The notes beneath the pieces were generated by a model. It made no database searches, was not told the origin of the DNA, and saw only the letters and a list, made by a program, of their open reading frames with translations. The position numbers and the translations under genes were made by a program. A stretch of 61,766 bases of DNA, filler included, from Basidioascus undulatus (taxonomy: Eukaryota), in the NCBI GenBank assembly GCA_000826855.1. It is 11 parts of 11 records of this genome, joined end to end, with 100 filler letters (N's around TTAATTAATTAA, not from the genome) between each part and the next. Parts side by side here need not be neighbours in the genome. Positions count along the whole stretch, not along the records: positions 47,053 to 50,661 come from JTLS01002366.1; 10 more parts are not named here. The stretch is one strand, 5' to 3'. Positions 24,541 through 52,512 of the stretch are shown here, one piece after another. Position 1 is the stretch's first letter; the number at the start of each line of letters is the position of its first letter.

Positions 24541-24640
24541 NNNNNNNNNNNNNNNNNNNNNNNNNNNNNNNNNNNNNNNNNNNNTTAATTAATTAANNNN
24601 NNNNNNNNNNNNNNNNNNNNNNNNNNNNNNNNNNNNNNNN
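24541..24640. other. Artificial contig linker N44-TTAATTAATTAA-N44. Also at 28291, 32041, 35789, 39516, 43241, 46953, 50662, 54366 and 58067.
   Basis: The same 100-nt spacer, with stops in all six frames, occurs ten times. Confidence 0.99.
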
Positions 24641-28190: not shown

Positions 28191-28408
28191 AGCGGGAGGA
28201 TGGGGAAGAGGGGAAAAGGGGAAAGGGAGGGGGGAGGATAAGGGGGAGCTGGATAGGGAGTTGGAAGAGTATATGCGGGAGGGGAGAAGANNNNNNNNNN
28301 NNNNNNNNNNNNNNNNNNNNNNNNNNNNNNNNNNTTAATTAATTAANNNNNNNNNNNNNNNNNNNNNNNNNNNNNNNNNNNNNNNNNNNNACAGCATCGC
28401 ACAGCCTG

Positions 28409-30617
28409 TCAGACAGCACTCCTTCCCCTCCATTCCCCCGCATTGCTTTGAGGCATCGCCTTCTTCTTCCCCCTCCCCATGCCCTTCCCAGGCATCCGTT
28501 CCTTCTCCCTCCTCCGCTCCTCCCTCTCCTTCCTCCTCTCCTGCTTCTCCTTCACCTCCTTCCTCTTCCTCTCCTCGCGCTCCCTCACTTCCTTCTCAAA
28601 ACGCTCCACCTCCCGCGGGCACGCCATGCGGAGCAGCGCGCTGGGGACCCAGATCCTCAGCGCCTTGTGGGGGTCCTCCGGCGCTTTGGCAGGGGCGTCC
28701 TCAGGTGCGGTCTTCAGCTCAGCGAGAGCAGGATCGTTCCGCTCGCGCGCGAGACGGAGCGCACACGCGTCCCCGGTGAGGCCGGCCTCGGTCGCAAGGA
28801 CGTAGTGAGAGGGCTTGATCGAGACACGGTACTCGAGGAAGCGCGCGTGGGTGGACCGGTTCCGCGTGGAGTGGATCGCGTCGATTAGCGCTGCCGGGGC
28901 AGGCAAGGCCGGCGCGGGCGGGGGCGCAGCGGAGGATGAAGACGGTGGGGTGGAGGGAGGGTCGCGCGTTGTGTCCTCGCGCGAGCGCGCTCCGTCCTGC
29001 GCCAAAACGACGCCCCGGAGCGCGCGCACAAACATCCCTCCCCAGCAAGCGTTCCTAAACCTTGCCACAACCTTCTCCCTCGTCCCCCACTCAAAGTAGT
29101 CCTCGCAGAACCGGGCGAGCGCGCCCAGGTCCGGCTCGCCCGCCCACGCTATCCGGGGCGGGACGGGGCTCTCAGTGGTGAGCGGGGAGAGGTAGCGCTT
29201 GAGAATCTCCGGGTCGGGGAAGGACTCCGGGATGGAGGATGCCAGCGCGGGGCGCTTCGAGGAGAGGTACCCGCGCGAATTGGTCCGCAGCTCGTCGCGC
29301 AGAGCGTCCCGCCATTGCGCGAGGAACGCGGGGTGCGAGGACGGGGGGAGCGTGCGGAGATTCTGCAGGAGCGTGTCCCCGAACCCGGCTTGCGCGAGCC
29401 CGAACGCGTTCTTCACGCCGCACTTCTCTAGACCGGCCTGATCATCCTCCCTCCTTCAGCTTGCGTGTCTCTGGATGTGACAGAGAGTGAGGGAGACGCA
29501 CAGGATGGTAGTCCCCCCCGCTCAACAGCGCAACGAGGATGAGCCCGTCCTTCGTAACGCCCACCTCGGGCACGCTCTCCACATCGACTATGTTGTATAG
29601 CACGACATGGTGGTCGTCCGCGCTGCAGCCGTCGTCCGCGCCCGCCCCGCCGTCGGGCTCCGCGTCATCCGACGAGTCGGCCCGCTTCTTCGTGCCCTTG
29701 TGGTGCGACTTCGTGCCGGAGAGGTTGGCGGACCAGCTGCCGGAAGCGGAGGGAGTGGGTAAGTAGAGCTTGTGGGGGAGGAGGAGGGATGGGGGTGGGG
29801 CCAAGACATACTTCCGGAGGATCGCGGTTCCTCCGAAGAGGAGCGCGTCGACATCGTCCGAGAGGATGTAGTCGATCTCGCCGAGGCGGGAGAGGTACGC
29901 GAGCTCCGCCTCGGCCTCTCCGGGGGCCTACCGACCGACACCCACCCAGCTTCACTTTCTTCTCTGCCAAAGGGCATGGTGATCCACGCACGTTGAGGTA
30001 CTCGAACCCGAACGCCTTGACCATCTTCTTGAAGTCCTGGACCGCCCGGGGAACGGAGCCCTGGACGTACTTGCCGCGCTTCATCTTGGGCTGCTCCTCT
30101 CAGATCGCTTCAGTGTGTCTGGTGGTGATGGGAGGGATGGTTAAGAATGGCGTGACGGACCCGGTTCGGACCGTCGAAGACGAAGAGCGGGAGGATGGGG
30201 AGGGAGAGCAGCTTGGCGAGCTTGAAGAAGAGCGTGCGGAGGACGGGGTTGAGGCCGCCTGGAACTGTGCTGGCGTGGACGAACCAGATGCTGTGAATCG
30301 AACGTAACAAATACAAAGTGTCAGTTCCGAAGAGGAAGACCGTGCAGCTGGAGGCCTCCAAGTCGCCGAATCTCCTGCGTGTTGTTGTGCTCCCATCCGC
30401 CTCTTCACTGGATCGAGCAGGCTCACCTAGCGTCCACCCCTACCCTCAGCCCCCTATACCCGCCCTTATTCTCCATAAACGTGCCCATCGCGAGCCGGGC
30501 GAGCGAGCTCGACTCGGCAGCCGGGCGGAGATGCTGTCGATCCTCCCTCCAGTCAGTGCACCCTCAAGCAGCGCGTTAAGGGAGGATACACACATCCCAT
30601 AGGCCCGGGACGCCCAT
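28409..30617 (-). CDS. YEN1: Holliday junction resolvase Yen1/GEN1 (XPG/Rad2 family)
   Basis: MGVPGLWD, RVGVDASIW, LFVFDGPNRPKMKRGK, APGEAEAELAYL..IDYILSDDVDALLFG, LILVALLSGGDY, CGVKNAFGLAQAGFG. Confidence 0.92.
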
Positions 30618-34329: not shown

Positions 34330-34849
34330 TATATCACCAAATTATCCCGCTGGAATGGGACGCACAGTCCACTGATCAAGCAGTCGGAGTGTTTAGACCT
34401 CGCTTCTTCCAGTCGTGGCACAAATCCCGGCAGAGCTTCTCTTCTCCCCCTGCTGAACCAAGCTGAGAACCTCGGACAAACATTCAGTGGCGATTCTAGT
34501 ATACGATTATCAGACGAGGTGATGTGCACGTTTGGAAGGCTTGAGCGGCTTGCAGCCTGGCTGGCCGGACGCAGCGCAGTGTCTGAGTGCCCCTCGCGTG
34601 CTTTGGCATGAGCTGAGCCCAAAGGACTTCAGATTTCCAAGTAAATGCACAAGGTCTCGATCCCCGTACCTTGCTCATTTGGAACTACACATTCTTCTAG
34701 CTCGTCAACCCGGGCCAGTCAAGGGAAGACTGCCAAACGCTGCATGGCTGGAGACCCTCGAAGTCCAAGAGGCAGTCCATTGGAAGCCCAGTGGCGTGGA
34801 CAGGGCGCGTAATACTCTTGTCTACATCTCTTTCATTGTGATGATATAA
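34330..34849 (+). pseudogene. LRR-like gene relic
   Basis: LLPLLNQAENL..FGRLERLAAW and YLAHLELHI..WLETLEV lie in different frames. Confidence 0.3.
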
Positions 34850-37691: not shown

Positions 37692-39515
37692 ATGCGTTCA
37701 CACCCCGACCCGCACCAGTATCTGAGCTCGCCCACGCCCGATGCCCACCGCTCTCCTCCGCCCTCCCCGCTCCTCCCGCAGTCCGTCGAGGGCTCCGTCG
37801 ATTTGCACTCGTCCTACACTGAAACCCTCGACGAGGACCGCGATCTACTGCCCGCGCGGTCCGGATCCATCTGCTCCATCTCCTCCAGCATCCCCGTCTT
37901 CCTCGACGCTCCCCCCGCTTCATCTTCGCCCTCCCCGCGTTCGCCACCACACCGCCTGCGCAACGCCAGTCTGAGCAGCGCAGAGTCCGTCGACGTCGAC
38001 CCGCTGCTCAGGTGGAGGGAGAGCTACTTCTCCTCCAGCCGGACGGTCAGCACCGCGCGGACGAGCGTCGAGAGCGCCGTGGACGGGGAAGACGCGAAGG
38101 AGGCGAAGGTGGTGCGGAGGCGGCCGAGCGCTCTCAGCGTGTTGGTCTACGATGTCGACCAAGACTCCCCATCGTCTTCGTCGCTCGCCTCGAGCCCGAC
38201 AAACGTCCTCGGCCTGACCAACCTCGGCCCACCCCCGCCTACACCTCCTCACACACTTCCATCCCCTCCTCCGGCGCCCCTACGCCGTCGCTCGCAGACG
38301 ACTGTCTCGACGCCGAACCTGCGTGCGCGCACACGCGGATCAAAGGAGAACAAGCCGCCGCTCCCGCCGCTCCCGCCGCTCCCGCCGCTCCCGCCGCTCC
38401 CGGGCTCCGCGGGGAAGACGCGGCGCACACCCACACGAGCGGCTGCCCTCACGCCCGTGCCCGTCTTCCTGCCGCTCGCGCCCTCAGAGGCACCCACCAT
38501 TCAGCTATGGATTGATCAAGTAGGTCACTACCTTTCACCCCCATCCCGCTGTCCCCTTCCCGTGCGAGGCTGACTCGCGAACCTTCATCTTCTGGCGAAT
38601 AGGAAGGCTTTCGCGCTGTCCGCCCGACATTCCACTTCCTTCGTTACCGCCGTACAGCACGCCTGCATTCCGCCCCGTCTCCAACGGGATCAGCCAAGGC
38701 GAAGGAAGCGCCGCCTGCTGAAGCGCAAGGCGTACTCGAGTTCGTGCTGCGCGAGAAGGAGGGCTTCATCTACCATCATTCGGTGCGTCGCTGCTATCTT
38801 CTACTCCTCTCTTCACTTCTGTGATCTTGGGTAAATCCGATGCTGAAAGAGTGTACTGGCAATCGGAACAGGCCATGGAATCATCACCTGCGCTGCGACG
38901 CTTGACGATCAACAACGATCCGTCAAGAGACTTCATCTCCCGCCACGCGTCGCTCTCAATCAAGGCGCCCGGCGCGTATAGCGTCAAGGGCTCCGAGGAC
39001 AAAGGCCAGCTCCACTGGCGCTTCGACTACAGCGTGGAGGACGCAATCTCGCCTTCGGGCACGCGTCTTGCCGGAGAAAAGGTGCGCTGTACTCTGCACC
39101 CCATTTCACCAACGTACTTGACTAACTTCCTGCTGCCCGCCCCACGCTCCAGATCCTGCATCCCCTCAAGTTCAGCTGCACTCCCGAGCTGCTGAACCCC
39201 ACGCGCGGCAAGGCGCCATCCCTCCTGCACAACCTCCTGAAGTCCGTCACCCCGAACCTTCAATCGCACAAGCTCCAGCTCCCGCCCCTCACCCCACCAC
39301 CGGACCCCACGCCCTCGTCAGCCCCACCCGCGACCTCCTCCGAATTCCCCGGCAGCAGCTCCAGCTCCACCTCCCCGCTGCACTTCCCGCACACGCTCCC
39401 GCGCATCCGCACGCTCACGGCCTTCTCCGGCGCCGCGCACGTGGTGCCTGACGGACCGCGCAGGATCCGCGAGCGCGCGCGCACGGCGGACGGCGCGGGC
39501 CCGATCAAGTGGACG
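37692..39515 (+). CDS. Hypothetical protein: disordered N-terminus plus a globular LWIDQEGFR domain, 3' truncated
   Basis: 293-codon first ORF. Three canonical introns give IQLWIDQEGFRAVRPTF..YHHSAMESSPALRRLTINND..WRFDYSVED..GEKILHPLKFSCTPELL. Confidence 0.8.
38355..38402 (+). repeat. 9-nt coding tandem repeat (CCGCCGCTC) x5 encoding (PPL)5
   Basis: Read directly from the sequence. Confidence 0.9.
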
Positions 39516-47052: not shown

Positions 47053-47184
47053 GGAGGGAAGGGGGGGAGGGACGCACCCCCGCGTGCGCATGAGGGTCAG
47101 GTTGGAGACGTGCTCGCGCAGGAAGGACGCGTGCTCGGGCGAGACTTGCTCGCCCGGGATGGTAGGCACGATCGAGGGCGCCAT
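47053..47184 (-). CDS. First exon of an unidentified gene (truncated by contig end)
   Basis: MAPSIVPTIPGEQVSPEHASFLREHVSNLTLMRTR followed by a GTGCGT donor. Confidence 0.5.
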
Positions 47185-47531: not shown

Positions 47532-49384
47532 ATGGTGAGCCTGCGTGGGTCCTAGGAGCAAGCATTGCAGGAGCAGTGCAGTCGGCGGGTCAGGCACCGA
47601 GCGGGGGAGAGTTGGTCGAGCTCAGGCTCGCTCCCCGCAGCGGTCTTCGATTGGGGCTCTGGGTGCAAGAGAAAGGAGTTTAGATCGGCTAGAACACATA
47701 TGGTCGGATGGGTCGATGGAATCCATATTCGCGACGGCTTCCCTTTCGCCCGACTAGCACAGCCGCACCCGCTCTGGCCCCGCCCTTCCAGCAGTCACTC
47801 GCGGCCGTAGACGAACCGACTGACATTCCCTCCTTCCCTCCCTGCAGTCCGACTCTCCCGACGCCGCCGCCAACCACCAGGACTACGAGGCCGTTCGTCC
47901 GTTCCCCCTACCCTCCCTTCCCCGTCCCCGTCCCCCTTACACTCCTCCCCGAGCTCATACCTCTTCCATTCGCCCGAGCAGAAGATCCAGTTCGCGGACG
48001 AGCGCAAGGCGGAGGGTAACGGTGCGTCGACTTGATGAGAGGGTTGGGAGGGATGGAACTGAAGAGGTGGATGGGCTGGGCGTATAGAGCACTTCAAAGC
48101 TGCACTTGCGATGAAGGCGCCCGAGGAGAAGAAGGAGCGGGAGAAGCTACTTAGGAAGGGTCCGTCTTTTCTCCTCTTGCTTACTCCCCTCTTCCTCTCA
48201 CACGGCTCCTCCCCCCCCAGCGTTGGGGTCCTGGCACAGCGTTTGTCCCCTCTCTTCCTTTCCTGGGAATAGGATGGCTCAAGGGAATGCATGGTGGATG
48301 ACGGATGGTTTGTGGGACGATCAGGCCCTCTTCTACCTCTCCGGTCTCGACCGCAACGTCCTCAATGCGTTCGGGGGCGCGCAGGCCCAGCCGGGGCAGG
48401 ATCGGGACGCGAAGACGCCGGGGGAGGCGAAGTTGGCTGACGTGCGTGATGATTCTGCGTCTTGCTTCTGGGTTCGAGGAGGAGGGAACTGACATGAGAG
48501 TGGCTGCAGATCGGGCTCAAAGTCGCCGTGCTGCACAACAACATGGTGCGCTTTCGTTCCCTCCCCTGCCTCCCTTTCACGCGTGCGCTGACGAAGACTC
48601 TTTCCAACGCACCAAGGCCGCCTGCCACATCCAGCTCGAGAACTGGCCCCGCGCCGCCGCGTGCGCGCAAAAGGTGCGTCCCCCGCTGCTTCTCCCCTCC
48701 CCTCCCCTCCCCTCCCCTCCCCTGTTCTCGGACCCCTCTGATTAGATGGATGTGCGGGTATCTTCAGGCGCTGGACAAAGACCCGGAAAACACAAAGGCG
48801 AAGCTCCGCCTCGCCACCGCGCTCGGGCACGAGGGGTCGGTGATCAAGGCGCAGAAGCTGCTGGTCGGTCCGTCCCACTCTATGCCCCACCCCCCCAACA
48901 CACCCCATCGCTCTCCCTCATGACACGAAGACACTGACGCCGACGAGGGGATGGATCCGGAACGCAGAGCTGAAGGAGAAGACCCCCGACGACGCGGCCG
49001 TTCTCCGCGAGCTCAAGGCGCTCTCGATCGCCGAGAAGCAGCGGGAGAAAAGGTCTGAAGCGACTTTCAAGGGTGCGCTCCCTTCCTCCCTCCTCTCTGC
49101 TCCCTCCCTGCTCCCTCTCCCTCATGTCCCTTCCCTCTCCCTCATGTCCCTTCCCTCTCCCTCATTAATCTGCCCCCTTCCCCTCCCCCTTCCCTTCCCC
49201 ACCTCTTCCTCTCCTCGCGCGTGCCATCCGCTGATCTACTTTTGTGCGTGGGTACGGGAAAGGCATGTTCAACCGCCCCTCCCCCTCCGCCGCCGCCGCC
49301 GCTGCGAAGACCGCGTCGGCCTCGACTCCGTCAGCGTCGACCGCCGCTGCTACCGCTGGGGCGCAGGCGAACGAGTCCGCGTAG
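47532..49384 (+). CDS. TPR protein (TTC9/FKBP-type TPR)
   Basis: ATG|GTGAGC first exon (inferred). Spliced product RKAEGNEHFK..WHSALFYLSGLD..LHNNMAACHIQLENWPRAAACAQKALDKDPENTKAKLRLA..FKGMF. Confidence 0.8.
47578..47764 (+). ncRNA. Candidate intronic box H/ACA snoRNA
   Basis: Hairpin (AGTCGG 47580 / TCGGCT 47690), H box AGAACA 47691-47696, hairpin (TGGTCGG 47701 / CCGACTA 47756), then ACA 47759-47761. The 3' pocket is antisense to conserved LSU rRNA. Confidence 0.65.
49112..49165. repeat. 20-nt intronic tandem repeat (TCCCTCTCCCTCATGTCCCT) x~2.7
   Basis: Read directly from the sequence. Confidence 0.85.
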
Positions 49385-50761: not shown

Positions 50762-52512
50762 CGATTCGAACTCAACTCGCTTGCTCTCTTCTCGCGCACT
50801 CTCGCAGGTCTCCCGCGCCGCACTCCCCACAGCCGCGGCGAGCGTGCTGGCGCCGTTCGAGCCGGGGGCGATTGCAAGGCCCGCGCCCACATACCCCCAG
50901 GGACAGCTGGAGAGGAATCTAAGGAGGCTTTCTGGGGGGGTGGTTGGGAAGGGGGAGGGTGGGAGAGAGAGGGTGGAGCTGGGCGAGGAGGTGGGACGGG
51001 ATGGGGAGGGGTGGTGGGGCAAGGGATTGGGGACGTGGTTCGCGGATGGCGCGAAGCGAGAGGGGGAGCGGTACTTGGAGGAAGCGGATCGGGATCGGGT
51101 GGAAGAGGAGGGTGCTGAGGGGTTACATGCCAAATGTCCGTCTTCTTTCCCCTCCTGCCACCATCCCCTCTTCCATCTTACTGTAAACTCACTCACAACC
51201 CACGCTCGCTGCCCGCAGATCGCACCCCCCGCGCCCCCCTAATCTTCTGCCACGGCCTCCTAGGCTTCGACTCGCTCGGCCCAGCGAGCATCCCCGCGCT
51301 GCAGATCTCGCACTGGCGCGGGATCCGCGAGGTTCTGGAAGCAAACGGCATCGAGGTGCTCGTCACGCGCGTGCCGGCGACCAGCTCGGTTGAGGAGCGC
51401 GCGCGCAGGTTGGAGGAGATTATTGGGCGGGAGATGGAGGGGAGGGAGGTCAATCTGGTGGCGCATTCCATGGTGAGAGGGCCTCTGCGTTGTTGCCTTG
51501 GAGTGTTTTCGGATCGGTTGTCGTTGGGTGGGCGAGAGCTGAAAGGATGTGGGGTGTGCGACAGGGCGGCCTCGACTGCCGCTACCTCGCGACTCACCTG
51601 CGCCCGCAAAAGTTCAGGATCCTCTCCATCACAACCATCGCGACCCCTCACCGGGTCCGTCCCTCTCCCCTTCTTCCCTTCTTCCCCCTTTCCTCCCCTT
51701 ACCCCTCCCCCCTCCCCTCACAGGGCTCCGCCTTCGCCGACTACCTAATCGACGACCTGATCGGGCGTTCCCGGCTCCCCGCGCTCCTGTCCTCCCTGCC
51801 CTCGCGCGTCGTGCCCCTCCTAAACGGGGATGGCCAGGCCTTCGAGGGCCTCACGACGACGGCGATGGCGAAGTTCAATGAGAGGACACCTGATGTGGAG
51901 GGAGTCAAGTACTTTAGCTATGGCGCGCGGCATCGTCCCGGGTTGGTAGATACGTGGAGGTGGCCTTGGGGGATCATCATGGAGCGCGAGGGGGAGAATG
52001 ATGGGTTGGTTAGTGTTAGGAGCGCGAGGTGGGGGGAATACCAGGTGCGTCTTGTCTCTGCCCGTTCCTGCCTCTTCTTCCTTTCCTTTCCTTTCATATC
52101 AAGGGGACTGAGAAAGGCGGGATGGCACAGAAAACCCTCGAGGACGTGAATCACCTTGACCTTGTAGGCTGGGTGAAGTACGTCTTCCTCTTCCTCCCCG
52201 TCCCTTCCCCCTGCTCCTCCCTATCCTCCTCATCCCCTCCTTCCTCTCCTCCATCCTCTCTTCCGCTCGTCCCTGACACACACACCCCAACCCAAAGCCA
52301 CGCCCGCTACGCCTGGGCCGAGCTCGTCGGGCGCGCGATCCAGGTCCGGCTCCGGTCTCTCCATCCTGCCTCTTCTTTCTCTTGCTGATTTGTGGGATGG
52401 ATGTCGTTTTTGGGGTGGTGTGCGGGTTGCGCTGGGGGTTGGGACGGAGCAGTACAAGCCCGGCACGTTCTACCTCGAGATTGCGGACTTGCTGGCGAGG
52501 CACGATTTGTAG
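50762..52512 (+). CDS. TGL2: Triacylglycerol lipase 2-like alpha/beta hydrolase (5' end uncertain)
   Basis: FCHGLLGFD, HWRGI, VNLVAHSMGGLDCR, TIATPHRGS, ENDGLVSVRSARWGEY, NHLDLVGW. Confidence 0.9.

Follow-up and report, generated by a model that had tools for sequence, protein, structure and literature searches.

A putative intronic box H/ACA RNA of Basidioascus undulatus and its complementarity to domain II of the large-subunit rRNA

The first intron of a gene for a small, predicted tetratricopeptide repeat (TPR) protein of Basidioascus undulatus (assembly GCA_000826855.1) holds two hairpins, the motif AGAACA between them and an ACA behind the second. This raises the question of whether the intron encodes a box H/ACA small nucleolar RNA (snoRNA) and, should it do so, what such an RNA would do to the large-subunit (LSU) rRNA that its pocket matches. 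An original prediction had placed a candidate H/ACA RNA here, clamped around four unpaired nucleotides of the LSU rRNA, and had seen in it either an atypical pseudouridylation guide or, with more stress, a non-modifying chaperone of rRNA folding. In this work, the candidate was analysed within a window of 61,766 nt, which is the whole stretch of DNA examined and along which all positions are counted; the candidate's contig spans 47053-50661. We judge the chances to be evenly poised that the intron encodes a lineage-specific H/ACA snoRNA which docks on domain II of the LSU rRNA, a judgement drawn from sequence comparison.

Boxes, pocket and the match to LSU rRNA

The elements of an H/ACA RNA are plainly present on the + strand. 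The H box AGAACA (47691-47696), which fits ANANNA, would form the hinge; it abuts a proposed 5′ hairpin of 81 nt (47610-47690) and stands 4 nt ahead of the 3′ hairpin. The lower stem of the 3′ hairpin is made of TGGTCGG (47701-47707) and CCGACTA (47750-47756), which form 7 bp with one G.U, and above it the 10-nt 5′ pocket strand ATGGGTCGAT (47708-47717) and the 7-nt 3′ pocket strand CTTTCGC (47743-47749) flank an upper stem with an 11-nt loop (47718-47742). The ACA box (47759-47761) follows 2 nt beyond the lower stem and, with the 3 nt that the family rule adds, sets the predicted 3′ end at 47764. From the upper stem to ACA there are 16 nt, which is within the 14-16 nt expected between box and pocket top. 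Hinge, lower stem, pocket strands, ACA box and the 16-nt distance had all been described in the original prediction and were found again; the upper stem GGAATCC/GGCTTCC (47718-47724 with 47736-47742) is also there, but a T.C mismatch that had gone unmentioned leaves 6 of its 7 positions paired.

The candidate had been drawn as 47578..47764 with a branched 5′ hairpin. Its 3′ end is kept, but for the 5′ hairpin the limits 47610-47690 are preferable; they enclose a single extended and unbranched hairpin (minimum free energy (MFE) -29.9 kcal/mol) whose 14-bp lower stem has one bulge; by eye, alternative closures can be placed at 47580-85 and 47639-46. In the unconstrained MFE structure of 47610-47764 the order of hairpin, hinge, hairpin and tail is recovered, with the AGAACA hinge and the GCACAGCC tail single-stranded.

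As rRNA reference we used the complete small-subunit (SSU), 5.8S and LSU sequences of a eukaryotic proxy locus, L019, which comes from another organism than the candidate; further proxies were eukaryotic rDNA contaminant loci in a prokaryote genome collection, fetched by exact match to a 26-mer of the LSU rRNA. L019 (contig CAWDRA010000010.1, 532 kb), L007 and L027 are filed under bacterial metagenome-assembled genomes and carry complete eukaryotic rDNA units (SSU, 5.8S, LSU), and the eukaryotic LSU fragments in at least 40 prokaryote assemblies amount to contamination or mis-binning. The conserved LSU motif on which the original prediction relied is real as this 26-mer: exact copies occur in at least 40 contigs of the collection, Rfam LSU_rRNA_eukarya matches, complete or partial, enclose it in the five longest contigs, and in three complete LSUs it stands at positions 863, 939 and 694. 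It was found in every eukaryotic LSU fetched, outside expansion segments, the identity among loci being given by construction through the exact-match retrieval.

Scripted pairing of the pocket against the L019 LSU returned 7/7 pairs, a 4-nt gap ACTA (ACUA in the rRNA) and then 9/10 pairs. The 3′ pocket strand CTTTCGC pairs 7/7 with rRNA GCGAAAG on the 5′ side of the gap (9/9 when 47750-51 are included), and the 5′ pocket strand pairs 9/10 with ATCGAACCAT on the 3′ side, with G47712 opposite an A; including 47706-07, this second side counts 10 Watson-Crick pairs, one G.U and one G.A among 12. The duplex energies are -8.0 kcal/mol for the 3′ pocket strand (-14.6 extended) and -8.5 kcal/mol for the 5′ pocket strand (-13.0 with 47706-07), and the LSU stretch that holds the site is GGGGCGAAAGACUAAUCG. 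An extension of the pairing to 20 would need the lower stem to be opened and probably does not form. The polarity is of the H/ACA type described in PMC6049503 and 10.1101/569061, the 3′ pocket strand pairing with rRNA 5′ of the gap and the 5′ strand with rRNA 3′ of it. What had been claimed of the pairing, namely 7/7 plus 9/10 in the correct polarity around an unpaired ACUA, was thereby reproduced by script on a fetched eukaryotic LSU. In yeast, the 3′ side of a guide duplex is the shorter one, neither side exceeds 10 pairs and the whole duplex does not exceed 17 (10.1101/569061); the candidate, with sides of 7 (3′) and 10 (5′) and 16 core pairs, is inside this natural range.

The unpaired ACUA contains a single U, with A and C on its 5′ side. 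For numbering, this U was placed at position 901 of the Chaetomium thermophilum 26S rRNA (ct901) by counting along the fetched sequences, and we take yeast psi960/966 to be the H37 pair, which makes the yeast number equal to ct + 18. By this anchoring the U is U919 of yeast 25S rRNA, and the pocket pairs with 910-916 and 921-930. With the U at ct901, the pseudouridines listed for C. thermophilum at 917 (H32 bulge), 942 (C-psi-C-A loop in H37) and 948 (PMC12723226, Supplementary Table 2) all fall on U. The offset of 18 is consistent, since yeast Gm908, the snR60 target (PMC5824354), falls on a G.

Taken alone, the rRNA match is no evidence: when the spacer may vary from 12 to 60 and the gap from 0 to 8, 1042 of 5,897,988 pocket pairs from the window reach 7/7 plus at least 9/10. 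A joint control was run on the ten H/ACA-like layouts of the window. To count as a layout, a stretch had to show a lower stem of 6 bp, an upper stem of 6 bp or more in which no more than one position is mismatched, an ACA at a distance of 13-17 nt and an ANANNA no farther than 11 nt upstream. The 12 + 9 pocket-adjacent bases of these layouts, in 20 configurations, were compared with SSU, 5.8S and LSU rRNA at gaps of 0-8. The best rRNA matches per layout were 15, 14, 16, 16, 14, 15, 14, 15, 19 and 15 of 21; the 19/21, all Watson-Crick, belongs to the candidate, and the nine other layouts reach 14-16. Among 40,000 random pocket pairs taken from the window, 4 reach 19, 34 reach at least 18 and 444 reach at least 17, so that 20 configurations at 1e-4 each give a joint chance of about 2e-3 per window. 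At 13 layouts per 122 kb, about 0.03 chance layouts are expected per 313 nt, and the expectation for intron 1 is of order 1e-5. Both the complementarity and its rarity are thus matters of observation.

Some further observations were made along the way on layouts and matches elsewhere. The layouts at 52047-52129, 38355-38429 and 34634-34689 (+ strand) have rRNA matches of 14-15/21, at chance level; among the layouts other than the candidate, a 9-bp lower stem occurs at 52127 and AGAACA stands as H box at 38427. All 10 layouts are on the + strand and none on the - strand (82 versus 47 when the H box is not required), and shuffles yield both strands; the imbalance is probably a product of G>C skew combined with G.U pairing. 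For the 5′ region of the candidate, the best target was a match of 18/21 to a variable stretch of the SSU from one protist-like proxy, and it was put down to chance. A canonical-looking pairing, in which 47580-87 and 47678-82 would flank a uridine of fungal SSU rRNA (8 + 5 pairs, two unpaired), was rejected, as no stems support such a pocket; we take this uridine to be the known yeast pseudouridine at 18S position 999, and the SSU sequence is likewise an assumed one.

Intron 1, its host gene and the window

The gene model was read from the sequence alone, and intron sizes are compared within this gene. Its first coding exon consists of an ATG (47532-47534, + strand) with GTGAGC immediately 3′, and an unspliced reading from this ATG meets a stop after 7 codons. 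Intron 1, as the sequence suggests it, spans 47535-47847 on the + strand (313 nt, GTGAGC...CTGCAG) and has a branch-like site CTGAC at 47820-24, about 24 nt 5′ of its 3′ splice site. Spliced from the ATG-only exon, the 10-exon model gives an open frame of 266 aa; the rest of the exons for this small TPR protein lie in 47848-49384 (+ strand), with the stop TAG at 49382-84. The nine introns measure 313, 89, 66, 61, 68, 71, 94, 100 and 190 nt and are all GT..AG, and intron 1, the candidate's host, is the longest (the others have 61-100 nt, plus the one of 190 nt). The intronic setting is thus plain at the level of a gene model.

The original prediction had described the ATG-only exon and the 313-nt intron, both of which were read at the same coordinates, and its remark that the intron is unusually long is borne out within this gene. 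Its label of a TPR gene holds for the gene model, but the TPR_19 match from exon 8 (48768-48866) is weak (E 0.0035), and its 18.1 bits do not reach the cut-off of 25. The C-terminal half of the host protein presumably resembles the TPR domains of Cyp40/FKBP52-type co-chaperones. By eye, intron 1 has no C or D boxes, and the layout scan found no H/ACA-like layout in intron 9 (49073-49262, 190 nt), the gene's second long intron. C/T-rich short direct repeats were seen by eye in intron 9 and in intron 7 (48690-48725).

The window is composed of 11 contigs in order of decreasing length, one of 24,540 nt followed by ten of 3,650 to 3,600 nt, joined by N44-TTAATTAATTAA-N44 linkers, found at 24541-24640 and then at 28291, 32041, 35789, 39516, 43241, 46953, 50662, 54366 and 58067; neighbouring regions are therefore not physically linked. 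The G+C content of the window is 59.5%, and many short GT..AG introns interrupt its genes. About 350 nt upstream of the TPR ATG a divergent gene starts on the - strand (47081-47182), whose first exon begins with M-A-P-S-I-V-P and which is truncated by the contig end; a Pfam search of its 34-aa piece gave no match. An open reading frame at 28412-29455 (- strand) is similar to XPG nucleases of the GEN1/Yen1 type over their C-terminal part, with an Atlas score of 0.95. In its nearest Atlas cluster 70% of the members have GEN1_C, and Basidiomycota is the commonest phylum, the phylum being known for 26/221 members; the source of the window was accordingly treated as a probable basidiomycete.

Weighing the explanations

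The tests run on the sequence give partial support to the H/ACA reading, which survives them: its boxes, the sizes of its pocket strands, its polarity and the 16 nt to ACA fall within the usual bounds, and its rRNA match sets it apart from the look-alikes. Several results weigh against it. H/ACA-like layouts number 10 in the real window and 9-19 (mean 12.9) in 12 dinucleotide shuffles, so the arrangement of hairpins and boxes is at background level and is by itself no evidence. Folding energies were no better than those of shuffles (z +0.72 for 47570-47770, +0.83 for 47610-47764, -0.52 for the 5′ hairpin and -0.67 for the 3′ hairpin), and the hairpin-hinge-hairpin-tail order is present as a layout, not as a significant signal. 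For the 3′ unit, the H/ACA fold has -12.4 kcal/mol versus -18.7 kcal/mol for the MFE fold, which pairs the pocket strands, a gap of 6.3. With 7 positions, one of them mismatched, the 3′ hairpin has a short upper stem, and the 5′ hairpin has no pocket 14-16 nt from the H box, the distance being 19 nt (12 nt if a 4-bp stem is accepted); at most one hairpin, the second (3′) one, could therefore guide. Rfam gave no match at gathering score over the whole window and, when E values up to 10 were admitted for stretches of 701 nt and 206 nt, only unrelated ones (a viral pseudoknot, a piece of a long non-coding RNA and two miRNA hairpins), so that the family comparison suggested with the original prediction yielded no family. 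A scan of metagenome contigs for the extended pocket strands plus ACA (24 specified bases) found 3 loci where about 3 are expected by chance, as a rough estimate; they lie in or at the ends of long open reading frames on apparently prokaryotic contigs of 53-61% G+C, and their similarity is limited to the pattern. A looser pattern was found in none of the five genomes behind rDNA loci L019, L007, L027, L020 and L039, which are mostly prokaryotic bins contaminated with eukaryotic rDNA, so that this negative carries little weight. The pairing also departs from the canonical bipartite form, in which the target U and one 3′ nucleotide are unpaired, as ACUA leaves 4 nt unpaired. We know of no pseudouridine at the U of ACUA in yeast or human. 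By our anchoring, the U at ct901 is also absent from the C. thermophilum pseudouridine list, in its positions up to 2221 (PMC12723226), and yet this fungus carries about twice the usual number of pseudouridines; published rRNA pseudouridine maps for basidiomycetes were not found in the literature.

These results are also what makes a chance look-alike a rival to be taken seriously, if one that falls short of probable. By that account no stable RNA is made and intron 1 is long for unrelated reasons, first introns being often long, or because it holds regulatory sequence; G+C-rich sequence readily gives hairpins, ANANNA and ACA, and the agreement with rRNA is an infrequent accident that caught the eye of a reader who was seeking one. 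The background-level layout, the missing thermodynamic signal, the lack of an Rfam match and of a homologue in the sequences scanned, the pocketless 5′ hairpin and weak upper stem, and the site left unmodified in the listed part of the C. thermophilum rRNA (PMC12723226) all fit it, and a random match gives a 4-nt gap as readily as a 2-nt gap. At about 2e-3 per window, moreover, a scan of many eukaryotic windows yields some such cases. However, that expectation is small for a single window, and lower still given the position in the gene's longest intron, and the match lies in the conserved core with the right polarity, side lengths and ACA distance. The figure of about 1e-5 for intron 1 is in turn to be weighed against the prior for four unpaired bases in a natural H/ACA pocket. 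It is also conceivable, though quite improbable, that the H/ACA RNA is genuine and its LSU match incidental, the RNA being an orphan or acting on another substrate, such as a small nuclear RNA (snRNA), a pre-rRNA spacer, a variable rRNA region of this species or an mRNA. Many H/ACA hairpins are without an assigned target, seven fungal families still being orphan (PMC5824354), and the target search covered proxy rRNAs, which come from other organisms. A match of 19/21 is, however, as unlikely for the pocket of a real snoRNA as for a random one (1e-4), and the search for 2-nt-gap targets of the 3′ pocket in the proxy rRNAs gave nothing convincing: at most 10 pairs for the pocket as originally drawn, or 14 pairs including three G.U in a variable region, and these only when the upper stem is opened.

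If the snoRNA reading is right, a box H/ACA snoRNA of the order hairpin, AGAACA, hairpin, ACA would begin at 47610 (or about 47580), end at 47764 and be released from the spliced first intron of the TPR-protein gene. We infer that this RNA is made, is bound by the H/ACA proteins Cbf5, Nop10, Nhp2 and Gar1 and docks on pre-rRNA. Only the 3′ hairpin would guide, its 3′ strand pairing with LSU GCGAAAG and its 5′ strand with AUCGAACCAU, and the outcome on the LSU would most likely be a pseudouridine at the lone unpaired U. Yeast pockets in vivo tolerate four or more unpaired nucleotides, the 5′-most unpaired U being modified, and also a mismatch directly 5′ of the target when pairing is extensive (PMC6049503); the inserts in those experiments were uridines. 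This lends published support to the atypical pseudouridylation guide that the original prediction had offered as one alternative, for an RNA that is itself putative. Because the rule of the 5′-most unpaired uridine meets a single U in ACUA, modification is by analogy somewhat favoured over binding alone, should the RNA exist. Against it, Kelly et al. (10.1101/569061) reported for snR34 in vitro that a single additional unpaired G by the target did away with modification but left binding tight; near-cognate substrates that had one unpaired purine more beside the target were bound with a Kd <100 nM and hardly modified, and purines were proposed to crowd the site. Such data would fit a non-modifying clamp on LSU domain II, a sub-case of the snoRNA reading that we hold to be unlikely. 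There, the extra unpaired A and C would bar the U from the active site of Cbf5, and the RNA would transiently grip the flanks of ACUA between H33 and H32 with 16-20 bp during early pre-60S folding, or else compete with the C/D guide for a neighbouring Gm (yeast 908). The 16-20 possible pairs are at or beyond the 17 of the longest natural yeast guide duplex (10.1101/569061), the C. thermophilum list has no pseudouridine at the site within the part considered, and non-modifying or bifunctional H/ACA snoRNPs exist, such as snR37 (PMC13015370). Yet the yeast pocket with four or more unpaired nucleotides still modified its 5′-most U in vivo (PMC6049503), the pocket top at 16 nt from ACA is the geometry of a modification guide, extra helices or protein-recruiting elements like those of snR37 are not evident, and the clamp shares every doubt over the existence of the RNA. 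The chaperone is compatible with the snR34 data, but nothing specifically favours it, and the stress laid on it in the title of the original prediction went beyond the evidence.

Relation to known H/ACA RNAs and significance

If real, the candidate would be a member of the ordinary box H/ACA guide class with a new target and an atypical pocket, outside the curated families. With canonical guides (yeast snR families and the fungal families of Canzler et al. 2018, PMC5824354) it shares the layout, the ANANNA hinge and the ACA near the 3′ end, as well as the bipartite pocket, its polarity, the 16-nt distance, the shorter 3′ duplex and guiding by the second hairpin. Guiding by that hairpin (HP2) is the commonest arrangement, used by 15/23 true single-guide fungal families (PMC5824354). 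Unlike canonical guides, it leaves four bases unpaired instead of U-N, its target U is unlisted in C. thermophilum and it matches no Rfam family.

Some H/ACA RNPs, namely snR30/U17, snR10 and snR37, pair with pre-rRNA to organise its folding. snR30 and snR10 are non-modifying or bifunctional H/ACA snoRNPs, and the elements of snR30 lie nearer ACA and flank a long rRNA hairpin. By its target, gap and box distance snR30 is set apart from the candidate, which has an LSU target, a 4-nt gap and modification-guide geometry; membership in snR30/U17, a type marked by conserved m1/m2 loop elements that pair with 18S ES6 sites around an rRNA hairpin, is not proposed. snR37 joins modification with scaffolding of early pre-60S particles, and its extra helices recruit Upa1-Upa2 and Rbp95 (PMC13015370); no such helices are evident in the candidate. 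The binding site of snR60 (clan CD_5, the guide for 25S Gm908; PMC5824354) overlaps the candidate's LSU stretch, and yeast G908, which by our anchoring comes second in the GGGG run, falls within the extended pairing of the 3′ strand; snR60, however, belongs to the C/D class and directs 2′-O-methylation, and the candidate intron is without C/D boxes by eye. The closest setting is that of a Pezizomycotina H/ACA snoRNA within a vacuolar-sorting-protein gene (Gao, Jones and Rivas 2021, PMC8216456), which likewise lies in an intron of a protein gene and was previously unannotated. As described there, that snoRNA has covariation over hundreds of genomes and a canonical predicted target, whereas the candidate is known from one sequence.

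Were the match a coincidence, it would still serve as a calibration, placing a 16/17 bipartite rRNA match in an H/ACA-like layout at about 2 per 1000 60-kb fungal windows. Were the clamp to be true, it would be a pre-60S domain II folding chaperone with the geometry of a modification guide, an H/ACA function undescribed for the large-subunit core. For the snoRNA reading as a whole, a natural guide that leaves A-C-U-A unpaired would be a test case between tolerance in vivo (PMC6049503) and the finding that an extra purine kills catalysis and not binding (10.1101/569061). Few H/ACA snoRNAs were recovered by homology in several Pucciniomycotina and in Wallemia (PMC5824354), and an unrecognised one in this phylum would therefore not be odd. 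If true, the finding would add an H/ACA snoRNA to a phylum in which few have been recovered in this way, and a pseudouridine or a binding site would then be expected at an LSU position that is conserved universally and carries no modification in those fungi for which maps exist.

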